Assembly: GCA_002482845.1 (NCBI GenBank)
Contig: DLGT01000084.1
Coordinates: 13,157 to 77,156, forward strand
DNA length: 64,000 nt
Reading direction: 5' to 3'
DNA from: Saprospiraceae bacterium UBA7687
GTDB lineage: Bacteria; Bacteroidota; Bacteroidia; Chitinophagales; Saprospiraceae
The notes beneath the pieces were generated by a model. The model saw only the letters and a list, made by a program, of their open reading frames with translations, searched no databases and was not told where the DNA came from. Shown here piece by piece: positions 10,142 through 64,000 of this stretch. Position 1 is the stretch's first letter. The number at the start of each line of letters is the position of its first letter. The translations under genes and the position numbers were made by a program.

Positions 10142-12355
10142 TTAATTATATCCTGGATTTTGTTGTAGATTAGGGTTAACATTCATTTCCTGAACTGGAA
10201 TAGGGAATACATTCCTATATGATGGTACCTTAAGTTTATCTTTCACCGCACCAGTCATTTTCAAATCAACACCTTTCCACTCCCATACATAATCCCCATC
10301 TGAAAACTGTCCAAATCTTATGAGATCGGTCCTTCTGTGGCATTCCCAGTAAAGTTCCCTTGCTCGCTCATCTAAAATTGCTGGAAGGGTCAAATCAGAT
10401 TGATCAAAATTACCAGTTGTACCGTTGTAAGCCCTTTCTCTAACTTTATTGAAATATTCAGCAGCTTTAACTTTATTTCCACCATCTGCACCTCTAAGTA
10501 TAGCCTCTGCTGCCATAAGATAAACATCTGCCAATCTGAACATAGGGAAATCTGTATCTGGAAATTCTGTATCAGACCCTCTGGACCCCGATGAAGTAAT
10601 ATTTTTAAATTTCAGGACAGCATACCCGTTAGTAAAATCAGAGATGCTATTGATTTCTAATGTTTGCCCACTTGTATGAAAAATTCCTCTCCTATCAAAC
10701 CCTGTAGATTTCAATTGGTAGGTATAATCAGGCCTTGCAAGGTCTACAATCAAGTCATGACCTCCTGATTTTACTATATTGATAGCACCTGCACCATCAT
10801 TCAAAATACCGTCTAATTGTGGATCACCTAATGTCAACATATCATTTCCATTAGCTCTTAACACAAAGCTACCTATATTTAACTCAGATTTTATTCTAAG
10901 CATTTTTAAATCTGTATCCCAAACTAAAGGCGCTACACCGTTAGGTACAGCAGAACCCACAATACTCCAATCTCTTTTCTCTAATACGTAGGTATTATTG
11001 ACCAAGTTGGCTTTTATAAAATATAAACCTTGAGTAGATACTTTTATGTTTGCACCATTACTTTCTAAAGATCCGTCAGCGCCATTATCACCGAATTTAC
11101 CAGAACTCGGGAACCTAAATAACACGAACTCGTCATTGGCATTAAAATATTTATACCCTTCGAATATCCCATTTTGTCCAGGTCTCGATGTTAAGATATT
11201 ACTTGCATCACTACCATTAAAGCTATTTGAAGTACTAGCTACATAAATTTTTGACAGATTTGCTCCTGGATTAAAGTTTACAATTTCACCTGTTAAATCA
11301 GCTGGAAATTTGGAGACAAACTCAGGTGTAACTCTTGTTCCACCCCAACCACTTGCTACCCCTGACTTAACAGGATCGATATTACCACCTATACCTGCTC
11401 TAATGATAAATGTCATACCTCCAAAAGTTTTGGTCTGGATACCATCAAAATTAACAGGAAAGATTATCTCATTTGAGTTATGATTGTCAGCCAAAAAAAG
11501 ATTTGCATAATTTGGCTCTAAACTGTAGGAATTTGAGTTTATTACTTTTTCTGAATAAGTAAGAGATTTTTGATAATTATTTACTCCAATGTATACTTCA
11601 GAGTTTAGATATAATTTTGACAAAAGTGTCCATGCTGCGGCTTTGTTTGCTCGGCCGTAGGTACTTTTACCTTCATCAAATGCTTTAGGATCTAATAAAT
11701 CACTTTCTATCGCCAATAATTCACTTTCAATATAGGCGAAAAGTTCATTTGCATTGGTCTGTCGCGCTATATAAGTCCCTACAGGATCAGCTTCTGTTCC
11801 AAAAGGTACATTTCTAAATAAATCAAGCCCATGCCAATAACTAAGTGCTCTAATAAATCTTGCTTCTGCTCTGTAAGTTTTAATCTTTGCACGCAAATCA
11901 GCAGAAACACCACGCTCTTCAAGTTTAGCGTCTGAAGTTTGTCTTAAATATTCATTTGCTACTGCTACTTGATAAAAAATCCTACTAAAAAAAGAATACA
12001 CAAAACCATCTGCTGGTGTCCAAGATTGCCCATGAAAATCTGCAATAGTCTGATCATTCCATGCTATAACAGCTTCATCAGTTGTAAGTTCTTGGTGATA
12101 CCAATAACCTCTTATGTAATGGCTAAATCCTTCATCAATACCAGAAATATCGGGTTTACCAGCTGGCCCTTCTTGACCAGTTGTTGCAAATCCTGCATAT
12201 AACTTTGCAAGACCTTTATAGTAAGCTTCTGGAGAATCATATACAATGTCTGCACTTGTTATTGAAGGGTCTAAAGGAATAGTATCTAAATCATTAAAAC
12301 AGCTATTGAATGTTACTAATAGCACAATCGAAAGCATTATTTTTATATTTCTCAT
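10142..12355 (-). CDS. SusD/RagB-family nutrient-binding outer-membrane lipoprotein, unusually long (737 aa), with an internal insertion
   Basis: It lies immediately downstream of SusC and has the lipobox NSC. SusD-type helices are recognisable (RAEARFIRALSYWHGLDLF, FPMFRLADVYLMAAEA). The C-terminus reads QNPGYN. Confidence 0.85.
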   Translation of the reverse strand: MRNIKIMLSIVLLVTFNSCFNDLDTIPLDPSITSADIVYDSPEAYYKGLAKLYAGFATTGQEGPAGKPDISGIDEGFSHYIRGYWYHQELTTDEAVIAWNDQTIADFHGQSWTPADGFVYSFFSRIFYQVAVANEYLRQTSDAKLEERGVSADLRAKIKTYRAEARFIRALSYWHGLDLFRNVPFGTEADPVGTYIARQTNANELFAYIESELLAIESDLLDPKAFDEGKSTYGRANKAAAWTLLSKLYLNSEVYIGVNNYQKSLTYSEKVINSNSYSLEPNYANLFLADNHNSNEIIFPVNFDGIQTKTFGGMTFIIRAGIGGNIDPVKSGVASGWGGTRVTPEFVSKFPADLTGEIVNFNPGANLSKIYVASTSNSFNGSDASNILTSRPGQNGIFEGYKYFNANDEFVLFRFPSSGKFGDNGADGSLESNGANIKVSTQGLYFIKANLVNNTYVLEKRDWSIVGSAVPNGVAPLVWDTDLKMLRIKSELNIGSFVLRANGNDMLTLGDPQLDGILNDGAGAINIVKSGGHDLIVDLARPDYTYQLKSTGFDRRGIFHTSGQTLEINSISDFTNGYAVLKFKNITSSGSRGSDTEFPDTDFPMFRLADVYLMAAEAILRGADGGNKVKAAEYFNKVRERAYNGTTGNFDQSDLTLPAILDERARELYWECHRRTDLIRFGQFSDGDYVWEWKGVDLKMTGAVKDKLKVPSYRNVFPIPVQEMNVNPNLQQNPGYN

Positions 12356-51064: not shown

Positions 51065-51316
51065 TTACAAATTACTTCCATCTTTTTGGTCTAGGTATCT
51101 TCGTGCACCTCGTTTCTTTATTATCTTTTCTATTCGCAAGGCTTCTCTTTTATCTGCATTTACTTCCATGTGCAGGATCTCCCAATCTTTTGCTTTTGAT
51201 GTAAATCCACCATGATCTTGCATGTGACGTGCTAATCTATCACTAACTGACATAGAAGTAAAACCTACATAGTATTTTGATAGTAGTTTAGAATATAGAA
51301 TATAAACTGTATACAT
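51065..51316 (-). CDS. Small GIY-YIG nuclease-family protein
   Basis: 'MYTVYILYS..KYYVGFTS....R...H' N-terminal GIY-YIG pattern. The start is set at 51316 because the longer track ORF (51358) runs into a terminator hairpin. Confidence 0.7.
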   Translation of the reverse strand: MYTVYILYSKLLSKYYVGFTSMSVSDRLARHMQDHGGFTSKAKDWEILHMEVNADKREALRIEKIIKKRGARRYLDQKDGSNL

Positions 51317-51363
51317 TTTTCTTAGACTTAGCTTTTTGTTCAAAAAAAAAGAGTCCAACCTAT
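51242..51363. repeat. Left copy of the direct repeat (att-like) flanking the integrative element
   Basis: It is identical base for base to 63879-64000. Confidence 0.9.
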
Positions 51364-51377: not shown

Positions 51378-51707
51378 TCTGTTGTCGGGGCGGCAGTACT
51401 TACACCCTACCCTATTTTATTTTGCAACACACTGATATACAACCTTTAATAAATACATACTTATACTATCCTAAAAACAGATACCTAAACAGATACTTGG
51501 GTTAAAGAAATAAAGAACATTTGTGGTAATTAAAACTGTGATTATAGGGCTTTTGTTCATGGTAGTTTATAGCTAAAATCTGTAGTGTGGATTCTATTAA
51601 AAATGAATATTTATAGGATTTTACTCTCATATTCTACTAACATAATGGTTATTTATTACTTTTATGGTTTAATGTATATATGAGTATCTCTATCTAAAGT
51701 GAATATT

Positions 51708-54700
51708 ATGGGTTTATACCAAAGATCTGTGCTAAAGAATTATTTGTCTGCCTTAGATGATGTTAAAGTTAATGCTGCTTATAATGAGTTTAAAACATTT
51801 TTCTTTAACCCTGTCACACAGCAGAATATTAGAAACTCTAAGGAAGAGCAATTTCAGGAAGGTTTTCTTAGAGAGTTATTTGTTAAAATAATGGGTTATA
51901 CTCTAAATCCTGATGCTAACTACAACCTTATCTCTGAACAAAAGAATGTTAGTGATGCTAAGAAAGCTGATGGTGCTATCCTTATAGATGGTAAAGTAGT
52001 AGGTGTAATAGAGTTAAAAGGTACTAATACTATTGATCTAGGTAAAATACAACAGCAAGCATTTTATTATCTTAGTTCACACCCTGAAGCTGTATATGTC
52101 ATTACATCTAACTTTGAGAAGTTAAGATTTTATATACAGAAATCTAATGATTATGAAGAGTTTAACCTGTTTACACTTACCTTGGAAGAGTTTAAGTTAT
52201 TATACTTGTGTACTTCTTTAGACAGTATTAGTCATGGATTACCACTTAAGATAAAACAAGAATCACTTGTAAAGGAAGATGTGATCACCAAGCAGCTATA
52301 TAAAGATTATAGCAGTTTTAAGAGTGATTTGTTTAGTAGTCTATGTGACAGAAATAGCCAGATAGACAAACTTACTTTATTTAAAGCTACACAAAAGCTC
52401 ATAGATAGGTTTCTATTTATCTTCTTTTGTGAAGATAATAATGGGCTACTTCCTGCAAACTTAATTAGAACCATTGTTAACCACTGGAATAAAAATAGAG
52501 AATATGATGACTATAAGCCATTATATGAAATATTTAAAAAGTATTTTAGTTACATTAATATAGGCAGTAATAAGGTAGGTAGTATTCCAGAAATCTTTGC
52601 ATATAATGGTGGTTTATTTGCTGAAGATGTACTCTTAGATAAGTTGGACATAGATGACAATGTACTTTATACCCATACCCAAAAGTTAAGTGCTTATGAT
52701 TTTATAAGTGAAGTAGATGTGAATATTCTAGGGCATATATTTGAACACTCCCTAAATGATATAGAAGAGATACAAGCTGAAATAGCTGGTAATGTAGTAG
52801 ATAAGTCTAAAACTAAGCGTAAAAAAGATGGTGTCTTTTATACTCCTAAATACATCACAGAGTACATTGTAGAGAATACAATAGGTAAGCTATGTGCAGA
52901 TAAAAAAGCAGCACTAGAGATAGATGAAGATTTATTTGTAACAGCCACAACAAAAGCAAAGAGAGAACCACTTTTAGCTAAACTTAATGCTTATAAAAGC
53001 TACTTGCTAAGCATTACCATTTGTGATCCTGCTTGTGGTAGTGGTGCATTCTTAAACCAAGCTTATGTATTCTTACAAAAAGAACATCAGTATGTAGCAG
53101 ACCTAGAGAGTAAGTTATTTGATGCTCCTATGGTTATATCTGATGTAAGTGCAGACATCTTAGAGAACAATCTCTTTGGTGTAGATATAAATGAAGAGTC
53201 TGTAGAAATAGCTAGGTTAGCATTATGGTTGCGTAGTGCTAAAAAAGGTAGAAAACTAAATAATCTATCCAATAACATAAAGTGTGGTAATTCACTTATA
53301 GATGACCCTGAAGTAGCAGGTGATAAAGCTTTTAACTGGGAGAAAGAATTTCCACAGGTGTTTGCTAATGGTGGTTTTGATGTGGTGATAGGGAATCCAC
53401 CTTATGCAACAAAAATATTTACATCAGAAGAAAAAAATTACTATAAAAATAGTTTTATAGTTGCACAATATCAATTAGATCTTTACATTCTATTTATGCA
53501 AAAAGGTACAGATATTTTAAATAATAATTCTTACATAAGTTATATAACCCCAAACTCATGGTTAAAAAATTTAATGATGTCTGATTGCAGGCAATATCTA
53601 TTAGAAAATTTAACTTTTGAAATTATTTTACCTAATTTACCCAATGTATTTGTTGATGCTTCAGTTGATTCTATGATTTTTATAGGTAAAAAGGCAAAGG
53701 AAATGAATTCTATAATCAATATTAATGAAATTGTGGACAGCATCTTTATTACTAAACATGTTGTAGATCAAAATACATTTTATAATAATGATAAATATAT
53801 ATTTAATGTTGAAGCTAATGATAAAATAATAAAAATATTACAGAAATTAAACTCCCAGTCTGAAAAATTAGAAAACTACTTTGAAATAAGTAGAGGAATA
53901 AACCCATATGATAAATACAGAGGACAATCTAAAGAAATAATAGAGTCTAAGGCTTATCATGCAAATTTTAAAAAGGATGACACATTTGTCCCTGAAATAA
54001 GGGGCAAAAATATAAATAGGTATTTCTATAATTGGGATGGGTTTAGTCACATAAGTTATGGTCCATGGCTTGCAGCTTCAAGAGATGAAAAATATTTTAA
54101 TGGGGAAAGGATAGTCTTTAGACAAGTTCTAGGGGAAAGGTTAATTTGTACTGTTATAGAAGAAGAGTTAAAAATTGATCAAAGCATTTTTATTGCTAAA
54201 CCAATAGGAAATGATATAGGATGTAAGTATGTTATTTGCTTTCTAGGATCTAAGTTGGGGGCATTATATTTTAAATATACTTGCAATGAGTTTGACGAGC
54301 TTTTTCCTAAAATAAAGTTAGGGGAATTTAAAAATTTGCCAGTAAAAGTAATAGAAATACACAAACAGGCTAAATTTGTACTAAAAGCAGAAATAATGAT
54401 AAATTTTAATAAATTATCATTTAACAAACAATCTAAATTTATTTCCCGCATAAAATCTAGCTTTAATATAGAAAACATAACAGGCAAGTTAGAGAAGTTC
54501 TATGAGTATGATTTTAAGAGCTTTGTAGGTGAGCTAAAGAAACAGAAGGTAATATTATCACTTAAGGACCAAGATGAGTGGGAAGACTACTTTAATACCT
54601 ACAAACAGGAGATTAATATCCTACAAGCAGAGATAGTTAGGACAGATAAGGAGATAGATCAAATGGTGTATGAGCTGTATGGGTTAACTGATGAGGAGAT

Positions 54701-54722
54701 TAGGGTTGTGGAAGGTAATTAA
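51708..54722 (+). CDS. Single-chain type IIG/IIL restriction-modification enzyme (PD-ExK nuclease + gamma-class N6-adenine methyltransferase + target-recognition domain)
   Basis: N-terminal 'ADGAILIDGKVVGVIELKG' (D..ExK, MmeI-like layout with 'NFEKLRFY'), SAM motif I 'CDPACGSGAFL', motif IV 'VIGNPPYA', and a ~400-aa C-terminal region. A GTG at 51699 is an alternative start. Confidence 0.8.
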   Translation: MGLYQRSVLKNYLSALDDVKVNAAYNEFKTFFFNPVTQQNIRNSKEEQFQEGFLRELFVKIMGYTLNPDANYNLISEQKNVSDAKKADGAILIDGKVVGVIELKGTNTIDLGKIQQQAFYYLSSHPEAVYVITSNFEKLRFYIQKSNDYEEFNLFTLTLEEFKLLYLCTSLDSISHGLPLKIKQESLVKEDVITKQLYKDYSSFKSDLFSSLCDRNSQIDKLTLFKATQKLIDRFLFIFFCEDNNGLLPANLIRTIVNHWNKNREYDDYKPLYEIFKKYFSYINIGSNKVGSIPEIFAYNGGLFAEDVLLDKLDIDDNVLYTHTQKLSAYDFISEVDVNILGHIFEHSLNDIEEIQAEIAGNVVDKSKTKRKKDGVFYTPKYITEYIVENTIGKLCADKKAALEIDEDLFVTATTKAKREPLLAKLNAYKSYLLSITICDPACGSGAFLNQAYVFLQKEHQYVADLESKLFDAPMVISDVSADILENNLFGVDINEESVEIARLALWLRSAKKGRKLNNLSNNIKCGNSLIDDPEVAGDKAFNWEKEFPQVFANGGFDVVIGNPPYATKIFTSEEKNYYKNSFIVAQYQLDLYILFMQKGTDILNNNSYISYITPNSWLKNLMMSDCRQYLLENLTFEIILPNLPNVFVDASVDSMIFIGKKAKEMNSIININEIVDSIFITKHVVDQNTFYNNDKYIFNVEANDKIIKILQKLNSQSEKLENYFEISRGINPYDKYRGQSKEIIESKAYHANFKKDDTFVPEIRGKNINRYFYNWDGFSHISYGPWLAASRDEKYFNGERIVFRQVLGERLICTVIEEELKIDQSIFIAKPIGNDIGCKYVICFLGSKLGALYFKYTCNEFDELFPKIKLGEFKNLPVKVIEIHKQAKFVLKAEIMINFNKLSFNKQSKFISRIKSSFNIENITGKLEKFYEYDFKSFVGELKKQKVILSLKDQDEWEDYFNTYKQEINILQAEIVRTDKEIDQMVYELYGLTDEEIRVVEGN

Positions 54723-55570
54723 TTAACTTTTTTCTTCCCTAACTTAGAGATCTCTTTAAAATATGAAATTATGGTAAATATAATTACCATTAATGTAATA
54801 CCACAGCAAAAGAGAATAAAGGCACTCCAAAGACTAAAATTCCCAAAAAACAAACTAAGATTAAATATATTTAATGATTCATTATCCATTCCAATTCTAT
54901 ATAATAGAAGTAATAAAACTATCCATACTGTATTAAATAAAATCCTTAAAAACCCCAAAAGTGTTATAAATACAGGTTTCAAAAATGCTAACTTGTAGAA
55001 AACTTTAATAAAAGGTTTGATTGTGAAATCTAAATCTGTATTATAATTTATCTTAAATTTAGTATCTTTTAAACCTTCTGCGTTTATCACAAATACTAAT
55101 TCTTGGAAATTTGGTGTAGTTTCAGAACTAGATTTAAAATCTATTAGCACTAAATCTATTGTAAATTCTTCTTCTTCATTTAAATGGTTGAAATTAAAAA
55201 TAATCTCATTATTATCTGTAACATTATAATTTATTTCCTTTTCTTCTTCTTTAGTTATGGAACATTTTTCTAGAACTAATCCTTCAGGTATTTTAAAGGT
55301 TAAAGGTTTTGTAATATTACCAATTGGAGCGTTCCCAATATTTTTTATAGTAAATATAAAATTGTATATTTGGTTGATTTGCTTATCTTTATAGCTGATT
55401 TCTATATCATTCACGATATCTTTATCAACATAAATTACATGAGATGTAAAAATTTTTTCTATTATTAGCTTTTTAAATTTTGAGTTTTTATTCCAATATC
55501 CATTATTTAAATGACCTATAATATTTCCAATAATTAAAAATATTGCTCCAATTATAACATTTTCAAGCAT
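54719..55570 (-). CDS. Hypothetical membrane protein (1 N-terminal TM, ~150-aa beta-rich central domain, 3 C-terminal TM)
   Basis: Hydrophobic segments were read from the translation. Its stop codon overlaps the stop codon of the convergent R-M gene. No family was recognised. Confidence 0.5.
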   Translation of the reverse strand: MLENVIIGAIFLIIGNIIGHLNNGYWNKNSKFKKLIIEKIFTSHVIYVDKDIVNDIEISYKDKQINQIYNFIFTIKNIGNAPIGNITKPLTFKIPEGLVLEKCSITKEEEKEINYNVTDNNEIIFNFNHLNEEEEFTIDLVLIDFKSSSETTPNFQELVFVINAEGLKDTKFKINYNTDLDFTIKPFIKVFYKLAFLKPVFITLLGFLRILFNTVWIVLLLLLYRIGMDNESLNIFNLSLFFGNFSLWSAFILFCCGITLMVIIFTIISYFKEISKLGKKKVN

Positions 55571-55623
55571 TCTAGTATAAATTAGATTGCAAAGTTATGA
55601 ATTTAATATGTGATTATACAATA

Positions 55624-55654
55624 TAAAAGGGAGTAAATCCTAAAACTTACTCCC
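55624..55654 (-). terminator. Rho-independent terminator after the polymerase-like gene
   Basis: The minus strand reads GGGAGTAA-gttttaggat-TTACTCCC followed by TTTTAT. Confidence 0.65.
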
Positions 55655-55704
55655 AAATATTACTAACATAATGGTATTTTATGTATCTCTATTCTATACT
55701 TATA

Positions 55705-57345
55705 TTATATCCACTCTTCTATCTTAATGGTAGGTTCTGCTCCTATAACTTCTTTAATTGTCTGGTACATTTCTGCTTCTAGTGGTTCTTTGTACTCTGG
55801 GTTAGTAGCAATGGCATCATGTACAGTTAGTAAAGGTATCTCAGGATATTTTTCCTTCATGTTTTTACATATTACATCTAAGATTAAATGGCTCTCTATA
55901 CTTTGTAATAAAACAGCTAAAGTATTGGTACTATAAGGTATTCTTTTCCTGATACTTTCTCTTCTAGTGTGGGTAAACAGAACATTTATATCTTCAAACA
56001 TACTCATTACCTGTGGAAAGTGTAGCCTGAATATGTCACGTGCTAAACTTTCATGACTACTAGGATTGAAAAACAATGTAAAAGTGTGGTGTTTACCATC
56101 TGCTCTATCAAATTTCTTAAAATTCCTACCACTTTCACTTTTTAGTTGATTTAACTGTATAGCTAAAAATTCATAAATTTCACCATTTTTAACTAAGTGA
56201 AGGTATTGTTTAGTAGAAGGTAAGATATTCCCTGATTTATAGTTTTTAATTCTCTTAAATATACTACTATACAGTTGTTTATTTTCAGTCTTAAGGTTAC
56301 TAAGACATTTATTAAGAATACTACTTATGTTATGGTTGATTGGTCCTTCAGTGAATAATAAGGAGGATATAAATGGCTGTGAGTTTTTAAGATCACAACT
56401 TATAATTTCCTTTCCACGCAACCTTAAAAACTTTCTACACTGTGACTTTACGCCTAAAAATGATGTATGTAACCGTTGACTAGTACTGTCTTGTGTAAAA
56501 TATAAATGTTTATGATCTAACGCATGTATACTACTAATCCAGCTATTCTGTTTTCCCATTATTTTTGGGTCTGTCATAGATTTCTTTACTTTTTCATCCC
56601 CATATTTGTACTTGGTCCAAGACTTATCTCTATTTTTCTTAAAGTCTTTTATCACAGATTCTAAAGCTACTTCTTTTAAATCATTCATAATGTATTCTTG
56701 TGCTACAGTATAATTAGCAACAGAAACACTACAAAGATCTTCATAGAGAGAATTGTATTTGTTTATTGTGTTAGATTGTTCTTTTGTGTGTTTGTTAAAA
56801 TTCTTATAAACTGCTCCGCCCTTTTTATCATCACCATTATAATCTGGTATAAAATACTCACTCAAAGGGACATACCTATAAGCTGATGTAAATCTATATC
56901 CATAAGATTTCTCATTTGGAATGTAATAATTATCAGTTTCTATTAGACCCATTTCTAACAAGTAACTTAGATAGTAATTATAACCACGAACATATTTATC
57001 TAAGATGGTAGATGAAAATGGAACGTAGTCATCTATGTCAGAACCATCCATTTGCATATTTCTTGCAACAGCTTTTACTAAAAGACTTAAAATAGTGGCT
57101 ACCTTGTCTTCTTGCTGATGAATATTGTTTACACATGAAGCTAACTCAGGTGGGTGGTTAACTAACAACTTTCTAATATCCACATTGGAAGGTATTAGAA
57201 TAGATATAGCTTTATTAGCAGCTTTTTTTAATAATGGTTTGCACCTTTTTTTATTTTCAAACTCTTTAACAATATCTGGTGTGTTGATATTATAAGGTAC
57301 TTTAGGACACACTTTTGGTCCCATAAATAGACAATCTGTTACCAT
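55705..57345 (-). CDS. Family-A (Pol I / T7 RNAP-like) polymerase-motif protein, minimal size
   Basis: Motif A 'IISCDLKNSQPFISSLL' (D318), motif B 'RADGKHHTFTLFF' (R414, K418), motif C 'LLTVHDAI' (H509-D510), and the pre-motif-A 'SQRLHTSF'. Alignment was by eye only. Confidence 0.5.
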   Translation of the reverse strand: MVTDCLFMGPKVCPKVPYNINTPDIVKEFENKKRCKPLLKKAANKAISILIPSNVDIRKLLVNHPPELASCVNNIHQQEDKVATILSLLVKAVARNMQMDGSDIDDYVPFSSTILDKYVRGYNYYLSYLLEMGLIETDNYYIPNEKSYGYRFTSAYRYVPLSEYFIPDYNGDDKKGGAVYKNFNKHTKEQSNTINKYNSLYEDLCSVSVANYTVAQEYIMNDLKEVALESVIKDFKKNRDKSWTKYKYGDEKVKKSMTDPKIMGKQNSWISSIHALDHKHLYFTQDSTSQRLHTSFLGVKSQCRKFLRLRGKEIISCDLKNSQPFISSLLFTEGPINHNISSILNKCLSNLKTENKQLYSSIFKRIKNYKSGNILPSTKQYLHLVKNGEIYEFLAIQLNQLKSESGRNFKKFDRADGKHHTFTLFFNPSSHESLARDIFRLHFPQVMSMFEDINVLFTHTRRESIRKRIPYSTNTLAVLLQSIESHLILDVICKNMKEKYPEIPLLTVHDAIATNPEYKEPLEAEMYQTIKEVIGAEPTIKIEEWI

Positions 57346-57492
57346 TGGTAATTATTTAAAATTTTAATAAATATACTATGATTGAATTAGTGATTTTGTA
57401 GCTTAACCAAATACGCTATGGTTAAAAATCTCTAAAACAGAATGCAAAGTTATGTTGCTTCATTAACTTTTAGGTGTATTCAGAAGATCAAC

Positions 57493-57513
57493 TTATCCAC
57501 AGATTGTGGATAA
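57493..57513. promoter_or_regulatory. Inverted pair of perfect DnaA boxes (candidate origin or DnaA-controlled promoter)
   Basis: TTATCCACA-gat-TGTGGATAA, a 21-bp perfect palindrome 148 nt upstream of the polymerase-like gene. Confidence 0.6.
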
Positions 57514-57574: not shown

Positions 57575-58360
57575 TTAATTACAGTTGCAGTTGGAATTTG
57601 TTAAATACTCATTAAAACTTTCACCATAAGAGTCTCCAGCATTATCTACAAATTCATTCCAATCACCATAGTTAATATCACAATACACATATTTTTTACT
57701 ACTTGAAGTAAACTCCACTACTAAGTAATATAATCCTTCATATTCATACAGTGCTATGTAATCTAAGGCAGAACTATTCATGTCTGAATCATCTAAATCA
57801 GATATTAAATCTCCATCATCCACTACCGTTTCTAATATTTCTGTGCAAGACATGTCTGCAATATCTGCTGTCTCATCATCTTCATCACTATTTTCATCAC
57901 TATTTTCATAGTTACTGTAGTATGTGTTAGAATTAGATGAATTATTACTACTAGAAGTAGTGTTTTGTACCAAATAAATTATTCCAAATCCTAGACCACA
58001 TAAGAAAGAAAATGGTAGGAAAGTACTATATGCTAATGTAAAGTTGGTTTTTATTTCCGTGATGTCATTACCACACTGTGAACTTAATAAAGCTAATTCA
58101 TCTGTAATATCATCCTTATAAGCATACCATGCCCCTATAAAAATGAGGATACTAAAGAAACCAACTAATGAATATGTAACATTATCATTTGAAATATTTA
58201 TGAATTCCTTACAAAATATATAAAACAGAAATATTGCCATAAAAATGACTGTGCTATGGATAATTAGCTTGGATAAACGAAAAATAATGTTAAATAAAAT
58301 TAAAAAAGCGTATGCTGGTATTTTAAGTAGATAAAATGGAAACTGGATAATTTTTAACAT
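57575..58360 (-). CDS. Membrane protein with acidic linker and C-terminal KTSC-like domain
   Basis: About 4-5 N-terminal TM segments and an Asn/Ser/Asp/Glu-rich linker. The C-terminal 'IALYEYEGLYYLVVEFTSSSKKYVYCDINYGDWNEF..AGDSYGESFNEYL' resembles the KTSC pattern. Confidence 0.5.
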   Translation of the reverse strand: MLKIIQFPFYLLKIPAYAFLILFNIIFRLSKLIIHSTVIFMAIFLFYIFCKEFINISNDNVTYSLVGFFSILIFIGAWYAYKDDITDELALLSSQCGNDITEIKTNFTLAYSTFLPFSFLCGLGFGIIYLVQNTTSSSNNSSNSNTYYSNYENSDENSDEDDETADIADMSCTEILETVVDDGDLISDLDDSDMNSSALDYIALYEYEGLYYLVVEFTSSSKKYVYCDINYGDWNEFVDNAGDSYGESFNEYLTNSNCNCN

Positions 58361-58389
58361 TGGTAAAAGTTTTAATTTGGTTAGATTGG

Positions 58390-58752
58390 TTATCCTTTAA
58401 TATAAATACTATAAACATACATTTGGTCTGACACTTCACTTATCAACGCAATACTTTCTTTATTTATTAGGAAATACATAATATTACCTTTAGGATTAAT
58501 TGTTTTATAAGTAGTTATATTATTGTCTGTAGCATTATCTATATCTATTACTTTAAATTCCATAGGTACTAAATTGTTTCCCACGAACCATTCTACAGCA
58601 TCCTTTTTAACTGTAAACTTATTAAGTTTGTATTCCTTAGATGTACTTTCATTAAGTTTTAAGTCTCTTATAGTGCGGTAGTTTGTGAAATATGTTTGTG
58701 CTGTGCAAAGGCTTGCATAAAATAGTAATATGGATGTAATTAATAATTTCAT
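58390..58752 (-). CDS. Small secreted hypothetical protein
   Basis: Signal peptide MKLLITSILLFYASLCTAQ. No family was recognised. Confidence 0.5.
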   Translation of the reverse strand: MKLLITSILLFYASLCTAQTYFTNYRTIRDLKLNESTSKEYKLNKFTVKKDAVEWFVGNNLVPMEFKVIDIDNATDNNITTYKTINPKGNIMYFLINKESIALISEVSDQMYVYSIYIKG

Positions 58753-58773
58753 TTATTTTCTTGGTTATAGGAT

Positions 58774-59514
58774 TTAATCAATTAGATTTTCTGCAAGTAA
58801 ACTTTCATAAAGGGTTTTATAATTATTAATTGAACCAATATAGCCATAAATATCAATATTATCTTTTAAATAATTTTTTAATAAATCTGGAACATTTTCA
58901 AATTTATCCATCTTAAATTGCATAAATCTATTTGTATAGAATTTAAATTTTTCAATATCTTTTTCTTTCCCAAAATATGTAGCTGCTGATAATAAAGTCC
59001 ATGTATAATATTGATCTAGATTAAAACAGTAATTTGGTCTATCATATCTACGTAGAATAATTTCTGAATAAGCTTTTTCTGCTGATTTTATTAAAAATTC
59101 ATTACTTGAAGTATTTTTTATTATAAATGAAATTTTTAATACATGTGCAATTGCAATTAATATTCTGGGCTCATCATTTGTGTCGTCAACATAAGAATAA
59201 GCTAATGAATAAAATTCAAATGCTGTTTTCCAATCATTTTGTATCATTGTAAAATACCCTAAACTTATATACATTAGAAACTTATCTTTAATAAATTCAA
59301 CAACATCAAGAATTATCATTGTGTAAGCAGTCTTATTGTCAAAAGTGCTATTAGTATGCCTATCTTGTAGGTATTGATTTAAGCTTACTAATAATTTATC
59401 TGATAATCCTAGATTACTTTTTAAGGATTGATATGAATATTTATTTGCAATACCTTTGTTGGTTTCATCTACTGCTATTTCTAAGAATGTCTTTGTTTTG
59501 AATAAGTTGAACAT
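58774..59514 (-). CDS. Hypothetical cytoplasmic all-helical (TPR-like?) protein
   Basis: It is the first gene of the minus-strand operon and is divergent from the Xre gene. No motif was recognised. Confidence 0.45.
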   Translation of the reverse strand: MFNLFKTKTFLEIAVDETNKGIANKYSYQSLKSNLGLSDKLLVSLNQYLQDRHTNSTFDNKTAYTMIILDVVEFIKDKFLMYISLGYFTMIQNDWKTAFEFYSLAYSYVDDTNDEPRILIAIAHVLKISFIIKNTSSNEFLIKSAEKAYSEIILRRYDRPNYCFNLDQYYTWTLLSAATYFGKEKDIEKFKFYTNRFMQFKMDKFENVPDLLKNYLKDNIDIYGYIGSINNYKTLYESLLAENLID

Positions 59515-59605: not shown

Positions 59606-59818
59606 ATGGATAAAGATGATTTCTTAAAGCATTTAGGTCACAATATAAAAACGTTGCGTGAATCTAAAGGTATATCTCAGCAAAAACTTGCTGCGGATTG
59701 TAACTTTGAGAAGTCTAATATGAGTAGAATAGAAGCAGGTAATACAAATCCTACAATATATACATTGTACAAAATTGCATTAGCTATGGATGTAGAAATC
59801 CATGAGTTGCTAAAATAA
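59606..59818 (+). CDS. Xre-family helix-turn-helix transcriptional regulator
   Basis: 70 aa. 'IKTLRESKGISQQKLAADCNFEKSNMSRIEAGNTNPTIYTLYKIALAMDV' is a canonical HTH_3/Cro-CI pattern. Confidence 0.85.
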   Translation: MDKDDFLKHLGHNIKTLRESKGISQQKLAADCNFEKSNMSRIEAGNTNPTIYTLYKIALAMDVEIHELLK

Positions 59819-60057: not shown

Positions 60058-61014
60058 TCAGGATATTAAATACCATGAATCATGTCCTGTATCTAGACTT
60101 CCTACAAGATGTGAGAAAAATTGCCCTACCGCTACATTATTATCAACTATAGTGTCTAGGTAAGATGACTTTAATGATGCAGTAAATAGATTGTATAAGG
60201 ACCATAAATCTATTGCCCCATGTACACTGCTAAAATTTGCATCATGATAATATTGTTTTGTGACTGTAGTGAGCTGTGAATCATTTAATCCACAGTTTAG
60301 AAGTAGTTTTTTGTGCTCTCTAGGTAGATAATTAGACATTCTACATCTACCTAATAAATGAGCAAACTGCCTTTCTGACAATGTATAATTACTCAGGTTA
60401 CTCATAAATGTCAGGTTGGGTAATGGCTCATAGGATGATATAATATTGCGTAATGTGCTAGATAATGCGTCTATAGAGTTAACTAAAATAGCATTATTTA
60501 TACCATCGGACCAAACACAAAGATTGCTGCAAACCTTAACTTGAAACCCTATAAAGAAAGTAAAATGCTGCATGGCATTACTATTTCTATTTAAGTTATC
60601 TTTATTATATGCCTTCACACCACCTATAACCAACTTAAGTTCTTGCCCATTAATCACTTTTGTGATAGAAGGTATAACATAAACAAACATCATACGCTCA
60701 TAATATAGCGTTTCTTCTTGTGGTAAAAGTTCATGTACTTTTTTAAACCTTGCAGATGGTACTCTACCGCGTACTGGATGGGAAACTCTAATATATGGTC
60801 CTAGTATGTCATTAGCATGGATTTCACTCAGCACATTTTGTGTAGCATATATAAATTCATGCTGACTTATGAGTGCATGATTATCCTTAGTAAATACAGG
60901 AATAATATGATTACGTTCCATCTCATGAAGATATACAGGTAGAGTATTTGCTTCTATAAAAGGTAATGTAACATCTTCTTGATTTAGAAATGTATTAGTG
61001 GTTTGTAATTCCAT
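60058..61014 (-). CDS. Hypothetical MGE protein (possibly DUF3871-like)
   Basis: It overlaps the upstream ATPase gene by 20 nt, which suggests translational coupling. 'FTFFIGFQVKVCSNLCVW' resembles what I recall of DUF3871; this is unverified. The start is set at MELQTT (61014). Confidence 0.4.
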   Translation of the reverse strand: MELQTTNTFLNQEDVTLPFIEANTLPVYLHEMERNHIIPVFTKDNHALISQHEFIYATQNVLSEIHANDILGPYIRVSHPVRGRVPSARFKKVHELLPQEETLYYERMMFVYVIPSITKVINGQELKLVIGGVKAYNKDNLNRNSNAMQHFTFFIGFQVKVCSNLCVWSDGINNAILVNSIDALSSTLRNIISSYEPLPNLTFMSNLSNYTLSERQFAHLLGRCRMSNYLPREHKKLLLNCGLNDSQLTTVTKQYYHDANFSSVHGAIDLWSLYNLFTASLKSSYLDTIVDNNVAVGQFFSHLVGSLDTGHDSWYLIS

Positions 61015-61852
61015 TTTGTAAATTATTATTTGGTGATAAAATAGATGATGTAAGAAGTGTCTTTTTTGCAATAAATTCTGCTTCTAAAACAGGATAATAA
61101 GCTGTGTAGGACTTGTAAATCTCTGTTAGTTGCTGCAAATTTGTGGCATTATCTATTAAAGATTTAACTCTATCCTTAGAAACCCCTGAAAGACACCATT
61201 CTAGTATTTTATTACCAGTAATAGTAGTGATTTTAAAAGGTGGTAAATCAGCAAATAAACCAGTTCTATCCTTAGATGATTTAGCAAAATGGTTTATATC
61301 TAATTCTAGTACAATGGTAAACTCATAATCTATACCATCACGCATAATAGTTTTAAGTCCTACTTTCTCAGGGCTTAGCTTACCATTTCCCTTATCTTGT
61401 AAAACATAATCTTGTTTTACTCTAATGGTAACTATAATATGTGATGTAGATGAAAGTATCTTAGTAATAAGATCATTAATCCTAGGGGTGATCTTGGACC
61501 AATTAGTGAAGGAATTACCAGCAAGACCTGCATGATAGTCTAATAAATACTCCCAACACTGTGACAAACCATCTATAATTATACAACTAACACCTTCCTT
61601 TTCTGCAAGTTCTATGGCTTGGATGTATCTCTCAGGTGTAAATGGTTTTGTAAGTGGAATTACTTTGTACTCACCAATATGAGCATATAAGTCAGCACTT
61701 CCATTTTCTGTATCAATTACACAAATATCTGAATAGACACCAACTAAACCATATGCCATTAATATAGCACTAAAAGTTTTACCAGACCCTGCTGGTCCTT
61801 GTAAAGCTAATTTTATTTTAGCTTGTTTGCGTTCTGCTTTACGTACAATCAT
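60995..61852 (-). CDS. AAA_24 / Sak4-like RecA-fold ATPase
   Basis: Walker A 'GPAGSGKTF', Walker B 'CIIIDGLS', and a late 'SSKDRTGLF' typical of phage Sak4-like ATPases. Confidence 0.75.
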   Translation of the reverse strand: MIVRKAERKQAKIKLALQGPAGSGKTFSAILMAYGLVGVYSDICVIDTENGSADLYAHIGEYKVIPLTKPFTPERYIQAIELAEKEGVSCIIIDGLSQCWEYLLDYHAGLAGNSFTNWSKITPRINDLITKILSSTSHIIVTIRVKQDYVLQDKGNGKLSPEKVGLKTIMRDGIDYEFTIVLELDINHFAKSSKDRTGLFADLPPFKITTITGNKILEWCLSGVSKDRVKSLIDNATNLQQLTEIYKSYTAYYPVLEAEFIAKKTLLTSSILSPNNNLQNGITNH

Positions 61853-61932: not shown

Positions 61933-62328
61933 TTAAGCTTCAGCAACTACATGATTGCCATTACTACTAAAAACGTTAAGATTAGGAATCAACGGTGCTA
62001 CATTTGCTGGCTTTTGTTGTACCACTGTTTGCTCCATTGGTGAATAAGTGTATCTATGAGACAAGTTTACAACTTCTCCTGTTTCAGGAATAGTGTACTC
62101 ATAAGAATCACATTGTTCCTTTACAATAGATCCTGTCATTTGTTTACCTACCATCAATGCAGCTGTATTTTCATTAAAAGTAGATGAAATACTGCATGAT
62201 CTAGTGGTTGCATAAAATTTGCCAGTTTCTTTAGACTGGACCATTTCTAAATCCCCTTGTAATACAAGAGTTACAAATGAACTACCATCTTTGGTTGTTC
62301 TTACAGAGTAATTTGCTACTGTTACCAT
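61933..62328 (-). CDS. Small hypothetical MGE protein
   Basis: The start is set at MVTVANYSV (62328). The longer track ORF begins inside a C-rich leader. No family was recognised. Confidence 0.45.
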   Translation of the reverse strand: MVTVANYSVRTTKDGSSFVTLVLQGDLEMVQSKETGKFYATTRSCSISSTFNENTAALMVGKQMTGSIVKEQCDSYEYTIPETGEVVNLSHRYTYSPMEQTVVQQKPANVAPLIPNLNVFSSNGNHVVAEA

Positions 62329-62546
62329 AACTAATAAAATTTTGTGATTAATAAAAGGGGGGGACATCTTTCCTACCCACAGGATAGCCGGGGGTGTTAT
62401 GTACCACGATTAGAAACATAGTTACATTTAAGAAACTGTAATATTAGATAGATAACATCAGATAAACAGATAAGAACTATAATACACCATTATATTAGTA
62501 GAATTTAGGAGTAGAATCAGTGTTTTTGTTAAATATGACAATTACA

Positions 62547-63743
62547 TCACTTACTAAAAATATCAAACAAACTGCCTACATGCTGATCTAATAAATCATT
62601 AGTTACTTCTGCATAATGCTTTTCTGTAATTTTAGTATTAGAATGACCTAGTAAGGTAGATGCTACTTTAAGTGGTATGTTATTGCCTAGTAGGACAGTA
62701 GTAGTAAAGGTCTTGCGTGCAAGGTGTGTTGTAAGGTGTGCATTTAAATTAATTTCTATAGCTAACTCCTTAAGATATTCATTATACTTTTGATTAGAAA
62801 GTACAGGTAGGACACCATCATACTTATTCCATATCTTTTGTGCAGGTGGTAGCATAGGTATTAGGAAATTCTTATGTGTTTTTTGACGCTTCATGGTTAT
62901 CCATGTAATACCATTTTTAACAATGATGTTATCCATAGATAATGCTGCTATTTCAGCATAAGCTAGACCACTATAGCATGAGAATATAAAGCAATCCCTT
63001 ACTTTTGTTAATTTCTCTGTTAAGTTACCTGCATTTTCTACACATGCTAACTGGTCCTTTGTAAGATAAACAATAGTTGTGGTAACATTCTTAGATTTGT
63101 GCAGCAGCCAAGGGTCTTTATCTACATATTCTCTCCCAAGCGCATACTTAATTATTTGCTTTAGAAGCTGTACAGATTTGTTTATGGTGACTTGTTTATG
63201 CTTTAATACAGATAAACAGAACTCTTCATATTCTAGTAAATGCTTTAGTCTTAGGTCACTTAAAATGATATCCTTAGTGTTATAATACTGCTTCACAAAG
63301 TCTTTAAAGCTATTGCAAACAGTAATATACTTCTGTACTGTACGTTTCTGTAACTGTTCTCCTACTGCTTTATAAGCTTGTGAGATATACAGATTGTATA
63401 CTTCTACATATCCCATAGTTTTAACCACTGTGTTATAATGTTCAGGCTTGCACAAGAGTAGGTTTGCTATTTGTTGTAAATTTACTTCATGGTCATGTGA
63501 ATATATGTCTAGTAGTTGTTTATGGAGTTTCTGCTTCCATAGTTCTAAAATGTTGCTCTTAAGGGCATCATTAACAATCTGATACTTATTACCATCCCAA
63601 TCTGATGGATTTACTTTAATACTTGTGGAGATAATTTTTAAATGGTCCCCATAAAATAGTTTGCAATAGATAGGTGCTAAGCCTTTTCTATTAGTTTTGC
63701 TTTTGTAAATAAAAAGCTGATAATTAATACTTCCAATTTTCAT
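62547..63743 (-). CDS. int: Tyrosine site-specific integrase (Bacteroidota type with N-terminal arm-binding domain)
   Basis: Catalytic region 'HLARKTFTT...LLGHSNTKITEKHY' (R..HxxR..Y), a SAM-like middle domain, and the N-terminal 'KSKTNRKGLAPIYCKL'. Confidence 0.9.
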   Translation of the reverse strand: MKIGSINYQLFIYKSKTNRKGLAPIYCKLFYGDHLKIISTSIKVNPSDWDGNKYQIVNDALKSNILELWKQKLHKQLLDIYSHDHEVNLQQIANLLLCKPEHYNTVVKTMGYVEVYNLYISQAYKAVGEQLQKRTVQKYITVCNSFKDFVKQYYNTKDIILSDLRLKHLLEYEEFCLSVLKHKQVTINKSVQLLKQIIKYALGREYVDKDPWLLHKSKNVTTTIVYLTKDQLACVENAGNLTEKLTKVRDCFIFSCYSGLAYAEIAALSMDNIIVKNGITWITMKRQKTHKNFLIPMLPPAQKIWNKYDGVLPVLSNQKYNEYLKELAIEINLNAHLTTHLARKTFTTTVLLGNNIPLKVASTLLGHSNTKITEKHYAEVTNDLLDQHVGSLFDIFSK

Positions 63744-63878: not shown

Positions 63879-63953
63879 ACTAACTGACATAGAAGTAAAA
63901 CCTACATAGTATTTTGATAGTAGTTTAGAATATAGAATATAAACTGTATACAT
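63879..63953 (-). pseudogene. Duplicated 5' fragment (first 25 codons) of the GIY-YIG gene inside the right repeat
   Basis: The sequence is the same as 51242-51316. Downstream of the repeat the frame diverges into island DNA. Confidence 0.6.
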
Positions 63954-64000
63954 TTTTCTTAGACTTAGCTTTTTGTTCAAAAAAAAAGAGTCCAACCTAT
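63879..64000. repeat. Right copy of the direct repeat (att-like), truncated by the window end
   Basis: It is identical to 51242-51363. Confidence 0.9.

Follow-up and report, generated by a model that had tools for sequence, protein, structure and literature searches.

A minimal family-A polymerase, probably of the TV-Pol type, on an integrative element of a Saprospiraceae bacterium

Introduction

TV-Pols are minimal family-A-like polymerases encoded by transposons and viruses (Iyer, Abhiman and Aravind, 2008, Biol Direct 3:39; PMC2579912). They are defined by a thumb, a beta-hairpin bearing an invariant arginine, a palm with two aspartates and fingers with an RxxxK motif, they are never linked to a nuclease, and they include one subset joined to a D5-like helicase and another that has an extra N-terminal domain and is accompanied by resolvases, lambda-type integrases or transposases (PMC2579912). 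Bacteroidetes are among the listed hosts, and primase-polymerase (prim-pol) activity was predicted for the group (PMC2579912). Here we analyze a 64,000-nucleotide stretch of DNA from Saprospiraceae bacterium UBA7687 (contig DLGT01000084.1, forward-strand positions 13,157 to 77,156; hereafter the window), in which a 12.6-kb integrative element carries the gene of a 546-amino-acid (aa) protein, here called POL. On balance we favor, with moderate confidence, a reading in which POL is an exonuclease-less minimal family-A polymerase fused to a winged-helix-like domain and would act as a primase-polymerase of the TV-Pol type, replicating the element after its excision.

The only biochemically characterized relative is CCPol of SCCmec, together with its partner MP; primases of this type are known as PolA-SSB pairs. 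CCPol needs MP, an OB-fold protein, in order to prime; it uses deoxynucleoside triphosphates (dNTPs) and keeps the equivalents of residues E710 and F762 of DNA polymerase I (Pol I) (Bebel et al., 2020, eLife; PMC7581432; bioRxiv 10.1101/2022.12.02.518924). Integrative elements are also known to encode PrimPols of the AEP type, e.g., the PrimPol-PV1 families (PMC5862659). The TV-Pol concept itself has been barely studied since 2008, and the family of POL is huge, unannotated and biochemically untouched.

The POL Gene and Its Invariant Residues

POL is encoded on the minus strand, and the gene can be divided into the following parts.

55705..57345, minus strand: POL, minimal family-A (TV-Pol-like) polymerase open reading frame (ORF) of 546 aa, stop codon included (AlphaFold2 model and Foldseek search)
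57217..57345, minus strand: residues 1-43, disordered and poorly conserved N-terminus (pLDDT <50; alignment)
56821..57216, minus strand: residues 44-175, conserved alpha/beta winged-helix-like N-terminal domain (separate AlphaFold2 model)
56506..56820, minus strand: residues 176-280, helical, ending in the long helix 251-277, at the position of a family-A thumb (model)
55708..56505, minus strand: residues 281-546, palm and fingers core (model and alignments)
56392..56394, minus strand: codon of D318, the motif A catalytic Asp, equivalent to Pol I D705 (invariant in 149 of 149 homologues; profile alignment)
55816..55818, minus strand: codon of D510, the motif C catalytic Asp, equivalent to Pol I D882 and to D812 of T7 RNA polymerase (RNAP) (invariant in 149 of 149 homologues; alignments)

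A sequence-only reading of the window, which preceded this analysis and used no database searches, had picked out four family-A motifs in canonical order in this ORF, and all four stand at the residues it gave: SQRLHTSF starts at residue 289, IISCDLKNSQPFISSLL at 314 (with D318), RADGKHHTFTLFF at 414 (with R414 and K418), and LLTVHDAI at 505 (with H509 and D510). Its estimate of ~95 aa for both the A-to-B and the B-to-C spacing is close to the measured values, 100 from D318 to K418 and 92 from K418 to D510. When 149 homologous sequences are aligned, the sole invariant columns are R291, D318, Q323, Y391, K418, E484, H509 and D510, and the motifs noticed by eye are therefore exactly the positions under selection. 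An earlier alignment of 31 relatives was invariant at Y141, R291, D318, N321, Q323, P324, Y391, K418, Q481, E484, H509 and D510. The signature of the family reads D-[IL]-K-N-S-Q-P. Around these columns, R414 is Arg in 126 of the 149 homologues, F422 is Phe in 118, and F426, which aligns with Pol I Y766, is Phe in 116 and Tyr in 32, in agreement with the earlier remark that the O-helix aromatic is Phe and not Tyr. The element LLQSIES, 28 residues ahead of the His-Asp pair, corresponds to Pol I Q849. The true start of the protein may be M8, judging from the homologues P0006 and P0009, and the G+C content of the POL region is 27-30%, against ~33-35% over most of the window.

Predicted Fold of the Polymerase Core

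The structure of POL was predicted by AlphaFold2, run with an alignment of homologues (pLDDT 85.7, pTM 0.82). In the model, the long helix 251-277 is followed by a beta-hairpin (283-285 and 292-294) bearing R291, then by the motif A strand 315-319 ending in D318 and a helix (322-330) beginning at S322-Q323. The fingers are a block of helices, among them the O-helix 414-426 with R414, K418, F422 and F426; a second long helix (475-499) bears Q481 and E484, and the motif C hairpin (strands 506-508 and 511-514) presents H509-D510 and leads into a helix and the last strand. This order of hairpin, strand, helix, fingers helices, long helix and hairpin agrees with the topology of Klenow, and residues 176-280, from their position in the model, look like the thumb.

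A Foldseek search of the Protein Data Bank (PDB) with this model gave 91 matches at E<=1e-3, and every one of the best 50 listed is a DNA polymerase of family A, with E down to 2e-6 and a probability of 1.0; the listed matches include apicoplast apPol, Aquifex Pol I, M. smegmatis Pol I, the Bst large fragment and KlenTaq. Alignments with Pol I span 417-496 columns at global TM-scores of only ~0.3, and the modelled likeness is one of fold class and active-site architecture, not of close similarity. Among predicted viral structures, the best matches are phage proteins of ~400 aa (top E 4e-22, TM 0.79), the second of which carries the name “putative DNA polymerase I”; after these short proteins the list continues with phage PolA enzymes and, more weakly, with T7-like RNA polymerases (E ~1e-4 to 2e-3).

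By its predicted structure, then, POL has a family-A palm and fingers fold. The family-A assignment of the sequence-only reading is upheld both by Foldseek and by the domain-restricted profile comparison given below, and in its label “Pol I / T7-RNAP-like” the first half holds well; the T7 half fares less well, as the RNA polymerase matches are weaker and the promoter-binding N-terminal domain is absent.

Register of the Active Site and Likely Substrate

When the core of POL (residues 278-546, 269 aa) was compared by hhalign with a small Pol I profile, the two aligned over 209 columns with a score of 27.1 (E 0.005); the controls reached 12.0 with the reversed template and 11.1-17.8 with 20 templates whose columns had been shuffled. 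The template is a shallow one, since the Klenow-domain search behind it yielded only gammaproteobacterial Pol I at >=70% identity. The core profiles pair the following residues.

POL RLHT: Pol I hairpin RVHT
POL D318: Pol I D705
POL S322-Q323: Pol I S707-Q708
POL R414/K418/F422/F426: Pol I R754/K758/F762/Y766
POL Q481: Pol I Q849
POL H509-D510: Pol I H881-D882

Two comparisons made with the full-length POL profile were set aside. Against the single E. coli Pol I sequence the match was not significant and spurious, and against the small Pol I profile (E ~0.01) motif A was shifted, a fault of register that was repaired by restricting both sides to the core. The full-length profile also paired R414/K418 with R518/K522 of T7 gp5, Q481 with its Q615, and H509-D510 with H811-D812 (IHDS) of T7 RNAP, in each case in the expected register, against a single sequence and not significantly. 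R291 is equivalent to Pol I R668 by strand position but resembles the R654 strand by sequence, and is here termed the hairpin arginine.

Relative to Pol I, the hhalign alignment inserts two residues (K320-N321) behind the motif A Asp, so that Q323 corresponds to Pol I Gln708 and not to Glu710, a register with which the start of the predicted helix at S322 is consistent. Glu710, the steric gate of Pol I, then falls opposite residue 325, which is Tyr in 74 and Phe in 52 of the 149 homologues, and the gate position of POL is most likely aromatic, namely F325. The sequence-only reading had instead placed a Gln (Q323) at the steric-gate Glu, an assignment which this register replaces. Because a Phe takes the place of T7 Tyr639 (116 of 149) and another that of F762, and because the probable steric gate is aromatic, the residues suggest that dNTPs are a more likely substrate of POL than ribonucleoside triphosphates (NTPs).

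The N-Terminal Domain

Searches with POL against Pfam, PHROGs, NCBIfam, PADLOC and PDB sequences returned noise only (Sas6_CC, Fur/PerR, FlgM). The N-terminal ~280 aa, in which the sequence-only reading recognized nothing, are nevertheless not featureless: between the disordered residues 1-43 and the thumb-like residues 176-280 lies a domain for which a separate AlphaFold2 model of residues 40-175 reached a pLDDT of 90.5. Its topology is helix-helix-helix-strand-strand, with P52, Y122 and Y141 nearly invariant. Foldseek found nothing significant for this domain (best E 0.06), and the insignificant list consists mostly of winged-helix proteins (PerR/Fur, Rio2 wH, ScpB, BigR, TubR, ORC, MarR). 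Going by the model, we regard residues 44-175 as winged-helix-like and as putatively DNA-binding. As the sequence-only reading had also noted, POL is without an exonuclease; in Pfam it matches neither PF01612 nor any other nuclease family, and its N-terminal model is unlike DEDD nucleases.

Relation to TV-Pols

POL shares with the TV-Pols a minimal core, the lack of a nuclease domain and an extra N-terminal domain. Both are encoded by mobile elements that have an integrase of the lambda type, and both are found in Bacteroidetes as well as in certain phages. The D5-like helicase of one TV-Pol subset is encoded neither by the window element nor by most related loci, and it is not needed in the subset with the N-terminal domain. 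TV-PolN is predicted to be all-helical, whereas the N-terminal domain of POL is modelled as alpha/beta and winged-helix-like. For a direct comparison we used ORF MAP_030 (506 aa) of phage Ma-LMM01 with its 6 homologues. MAP_030 adjoins the IS605 genes tnpA/tnpB and carries the motifs LRxYE, NYD, K-TA-LA, LLQRIE and QHDG; by these motifs and the adjoining IS605 genes it is presumed to be the published TV-Pol of this phage. The elements “LLQxIE” and “HD” are common to POL and this presumed TV-Pol, and the N-terminal halves of POL and the MAP_030 clade align collinearly and weakly (E 0.046-0.09). POL probably belongs to the TV-Pols, as the sequence-only reading had tentatively proposed: it fits all descriptive features given by Iyer et al. 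in 2008, while the link at the sequence level, by direct profile comparison with the presumed Ma-LMM01 protein, is only marginal.

Distribution and Gene Context of the POL Family

A word-indexed search found 31 relatives of POL, of which a single one has a Pfam domain, an HTH_17 at its N-terminus. When 1.84 billion representative proteins were searched exhaustively with the profile, 9,147 of them matched at E<=1e-3, each a cluster at 50% identity, and 3,357 at E<=1e-30. No model of the family exists in Pfam, NCBIfam, PHROGs or PADLOC, so that its members are annotated as “hypothetical” everywhere. A genome scan located 74 POL loci, 68 of them in Bacteroidota and the others in Ignavibacteria, Balneolaceae, Gemmataceae, Spirochaetaceae and Eubacteriales.

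Clustering of the neighboring genes revealed a recurrent order of integrase, a protein of 230-440 aa, an HTH_17 excisionase-like gene, sometimes a small gene, and POL; in an alternative arrangement POL abuts a convergent integrase. Counted over 67 non-redundant loci, an integrase lies <=7 kb from POL in 38, a co-oriented HTH_17-like gene is found within three genes upstream in 26, a co-oriented integrase stands upstream in 24, and a convergent integrase follows immediately downstream in 8. The cargo flanking POL varies, and includes restriction-modification, SIR2, OLD-like ATPase, GmrSD, RelA/SpoT and TIR genes.

Sister elements whose POL is 45-80% identical keep the series of integrase, the small gene c4 (see below), AAA_24, DUF3871 and HTH_3, followed further on by POL, and exchange the genes between the regulator and POL as well as those after POL; the exchanged genes include a PolIII-alpha fragment, a ResIII helicase, SIR2 and an MmeI-like enzyme. 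Since the backbone is kept while its neighbors are exchanged, POL behaves as a backbone gene with a variable slot on either side, and not as cargo. The PolIII-alpha fragment is seen in the sister element with the 80% identical POL (L083:7981-9267), where a 428-aa ORF in the variable slot just upstream of POL matches DNA_pol3_alpha in part (3.6e-29) and DNA_pol3_finger (1.8e-21), i.e., a fragment-sized C-family polymerase gene.

Four unannotated phage genomes of 595-642 kb (LR756504, LR756511, LR745206 and LR756502) encode relatives with 22-26% identity to POL, and homologues are also present in 14 IMG/VR contigs. On one of these contigs, of 133 kb (L096:6206-14376), a 652-aa homologue lies between the genes of the large and small ribonucleotide reductase subunits and a DinG-like helicase. 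On another, of 70 kb (L099:8281-12619), an IS605 OrfB/TnpB gene comes before a 371-aa POL-like ORF, and a 435-aa ORF matching Pfam DNA_pol_A (2.7e-21) comes after it; the family-A polymerase locus may here be split or composite. The Hymenobacter qilianensis plasmid NZ_CP060788 (L082; 407-4398 and 29230-30450) encodes a POL homologue, a TIR-domain gene, and a Rep_3 initiator with ParA. The neighbor of POL on this plasmid is the TIR-domain gene, of the CAP12/Pycsar type and labelled “nucleotide-binding protein” in RefSeq; we rejected an assignment as ParA-like because Pfam gives a TIR domain.

The 12.6-kb Element of the Window

The sequence-only reading had called POL an island protein, and the window does contain a bounded element: perfect 122-nucleotide (nt) direct repeats enclose it, with the integrase inside. 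Its features, besides POL, are as follows.

51242..51363: left copy of the perfect 122-nt direct repeat, att-like (100% identity)
63879..64000: right copy of the 122-nt direct repeat, cut by the window end (repeat search)
51065-51358, minus strand: small GIY-YIG gene, its 5′ end overlapped by the left repeat (Pfam GIY-YIG 4.8e-12)
62547..63743, minus strand: tyrosine integrase with a Bacteroidota-type arm-binding domain (Pfam Phage_integrase, Phage_int_SAM_5, Arm-DNA-bind_5)
61933..62367, minus strand: c4, beta-rich protein of 144 aa, kept upstream of AAA_24 in related elements (neighbor clustering)
60995..61852, minus strand: AAA_24 / Sak4-like RecA-type ATPase (Pfam AAA_24 5.9e-17; phrog_124 Sak4-like 8.9e-9)
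60058..61071, minus strand: DUF3871 protein (Pfam 7.8e-88)
59606..59818, plus strand: XRE/HTH_3 regulator, divergent from the backbone genes (Pfam HTH_3 5.9e-11; PHROG transcriptional regulators)
57575..59514, minus strand: three ORFs without annotation, of 246, 120 and 261 aa, filling the variable slot that separates the regulator from POL (no Pfam or PHROG match)
57496..57510, minus strand: palindrome TCCACAatcTGTGGA, lying upstream of what may be the POL promoter (sequence reading)
57445..57452, minus strand: TAACTTTG, a match to the Bacteroidota -7 element TAnnTTTG, ~100 nt upstream of the POL start (sequence reading)
55647..55682, plus strand: 36-nt motif, 23 nt past the POL stop, with a second copy at 51621-51656 (repeat search)
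54719..55570, minus strand: predicted membrane protein of 283 aa, cargo (no Pfam or PHROG match; membrane call from sequence reading)
51699..54722, plus strand: type IIG (MmeI/Eco57I-like) restriction-modification enzyme, defence cargo (Pfam Eco57I 1.6e-42, MmeI_Mtase, TaqI_C)

The order toward POL is thus integrase, c4, the Sak4-like AAA_24 ATPase, DUF3871, the divergent XRE regulator and three ORFs, and POL is followed by the 283-aa protein and the type IIG enzyme. As the left repeat overlaps the 5′ end of the GIY-YIG gene, the element apparently brings along a substitute 5′ end for this target gene. No tRNA was found in the island, nor any Rfam match.

TAnnTTTG is the Bacteroidota -7 consensus, and TAACTTTG may be the own promoter box of POL; a 22-nt context of this box is repeated upstream of the 283-aa gene (55578-55599). 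The palindrome TCCACAatcTGTGGA is a possible operator.

Homologues of c4 (110-165 aa, beta-rich) occur in the window and in nine other loci (L001, L010, L013, L016, L017, L034, L041, L063 and L083). The gene stands ahead of the Sak4-like ATPase and DUF3871 wherever those genes exist (window, L001, L013, L017, L063 and L083), and directly beside POL in L010 and L017. It is a candidate for a single-stranded DNA-binding (SSB) partner, a role for which searches of Pfam, PHROGs and PDB, having returned no match, offer no support. A PDB relative of DUF3871 was not found.

The motif of ~30-36 nt past the POL stop (TTACTCNCANATNTTACTAACATAATGGT) also stands 43 nt upstream of the restriction-modification gene, the pair bracketing this gene and the 283-aa cargo gene; the number of copies expected by chance is 0. 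The 15-mer at its core is found again in comparable positions of sister elements (L001:16054-16068; L083:3791-3805 and 11680-11694), and the motif could mark the boundary of a cassette or serve as an operator. Of the ORFs in the variable slot, the 261-aa one has hydrophobic segments and an acidic tail rich in Ser, Asn and Asp, and the 120-aa one starts with a segment like a signal peptide.

Proposed Role of POL and Alternative Explanations

Under the reading that we favor, the integrase would excise the element as a circle, the winged-helix domain would place POL on the DNA of the element, which could be an origin or a single-stranded template, and the core would start and/or extend DNA strands by two-metal catalysis with D318 and D510. 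POL would then be the primase-polymerase of the element, as proposed for TV-Pols and shown for SCCmec CCPol with MP, its winged-helix domain serving as the grip on template or origin that MP provides for CCPol. The Sak4-like ATPase, DUF3871 and c4 may assist, and the host replisome would probably complete synthesis.

Several observations weigh against this scheme. In Pfam, POL has no match to DNA_pol_A (PF00476) at E<=10, and a profile of 28 POL sequences found no match at E<=10 among PDB sequences. The comparison with the MAP_030 clade brings motifs B, Q and C into register at a score of 19.9 and E 0.046, which is marginal and was matched by 1 of 20 shuffles. Around POL we found no convincing origin or iterons and no adjoining helicase, and the window element has neither a D5-like helicase nor a demonstrable SSB partner. 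The Hymenobacter plasmid, with a Rep_3 of its own and a TIR gene beside POL, lends no support to a replicase role, and in nearly every locus POL is surrounded by defence genes.

These last points are also the ground for the strongest alternative, in which POL is a stand-alone defence-type polymerase that makes or modifies nucleic acid on infection, following the logic of DRT/AbiK reverse transcriptases with a family-A core. Its neighbors do include type IIG and type I restriction-modification, GmrSD, RelA/SpoT, SIR2, OLD-like AAA_21 ATPase and CAP12/Pycsar TIR genes, it sits beside a TIR gene on a plasmid that has Rep_3, and neither a helicase nor an origin is linked to it. However, PADLOC gave 0 families at E<=10, POL has no fixed partner gene, and its place in the integrase/HTH_17 backbone is fixed while the defence cargo changes; moreover, homologues lie in replication or nucleotide-metabolism neighborhoods of large phages, where host defence genes would not be expected. 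We consider this alternative unlikely, and give a little less credence to its boldest form, that POL is not a replicase but a previously unrecognized single-gene anti-phage polymerase, the family-A counterpart of the defence reverse transcriptases, which if true would explain why POL keeps company with restriction-modification, SIR2, TIR, OLD-like and GmrSD genes and why it occurs on a Rep_3 plasmid.

The slot of POL, after integrase, a further gene, HTH_17 and a small gene, recalls the integrative element NBU1, whose gene order is intN1-orf2-orf2x-orf3-prmN1. Shoemaker and colleagues are said to have found in 2000 that the primase-like PrmN1 is needed for NBU1 excision. By this parallel, and given its DNA-binding-like winged-helix domain, POL could be an accessory factor of excision or recombination, architectural or doing limited gap-filling at att sites, and not serve replication. 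The strict invariance of the catalytic residues argues for real polymerization instead, and the phage homologues have no nearby integrase; we regard such a role as rather improbable.

We see very little room for a T7-like single-subunit DNA-dependent RNA polymerase that transcribes the genes of the element. T7-like RNA polymerases are indeed among the viral Foldseek matches (E ~1e-4 to 2e-3), motif C aligns with the IHDS of T7 RNAP, and the canonical steric-gate Glu is absent; on the other side stand the best 50 of 91 PDB matches, all DNA polymerases, the 546 aa of POL against 883 aa for T7 RNAP, the missing promoter-binding N-terminal domain, the Phe at the Tyr639 equivalent in 116 of 149 homologues, the bulky aromatic at the likely gate position, and the host-type TAnnTTTG boxes on element genes. 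Finally, a repair or translesion-type polymerase for host or element, such as a gap-filling substitute of Pol I, would suit the lack of proofreading in this family-A core, a trait of some repair polymerases, and is nonetheless hardly credible given that POL is confined to mobile elements, is patchily distributed and has no link to repair genes.

Implications

If POL is indeed the primase-polymerase of its element, Bacteroidota integrative elements, many of them with defence cargo, commonly encode an exonuclease-less family-A primase-polymerase of their own, a class which lies outside the DnaG and AEP primase families. With a fused winged-helix domain instead of an SSB partner, and with the Glu gate replaced by an aromatic residue, POL would offer a compact test case of how a Pol I core becomes a self-priming enzyme and how sugar selection is solved anew, and it would serve as a marker gene for finding such elements.

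Comparison with Known Systems

CCPol, like POL, is an A-family polymerase of a mobile element; the gene of each adjoins that of a site-specific recombinase, where a primase would usually be encoded, and both have Phe at the F762 equivalent. For both, dNTP-based prim-pol activity is plausible. They differ in that CCPol depends on MP as a separate partner, has the helicase Cch2 after it, is without the N-terminal domain of TV-Pols and retains the Glu equivalent to E710, whereas POL has a fused winged-helix-like domain and probably an aromatic residue at the E710 position (Gln in an ungapped register). The hosts and recombinases differ as well, POL being found in Bacteroidota with a tyrosine recombinase and CCPol in Firmicutes with a serine recombinase. 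Neighbor clustering of the related loci showed no conserved small gene directly downstream of POL that could be an MP-like OB-fold partner for binding single-stranded DNA. An operon of MCM/Cch-type helicase and serine recombinase is absent from the window element, which has a tyrosine integrase, and from the clustered neighborhoods.

In structure, POL is matched best by the polymerase domain of Pol I (Klenow, KlenTaq, Bst large fragment) and by apicoplast apPol. It differs from Pol I in lacking both exonuclease domains, in its core of 269 aa against ~400 aa in Klenow, in the 2-residue insertion after the motif A Asp and in the absence of a Glu steric gate. With T7 RNAP, POL has in common the palm and fingers fold and the HD of motif C; it is shorter (546 against 883 aa), lacks the promoter-recognition N-terminal domain, and in most members of the family has Phe for the discriminating Tyr.

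AEP-type PrimPols and DnaG-like primases, of which PrmN1 of NBU1 is an example from an integrative element, hold the same slot as POL, that of a backbone gene in elements that bear an integrase, are bounded by direct repeats and carry variable cargo. The fold of POL is unrelated to theirs, and by analogy POL would be a non-homologous displacement of AEP/DnaG-type primases.

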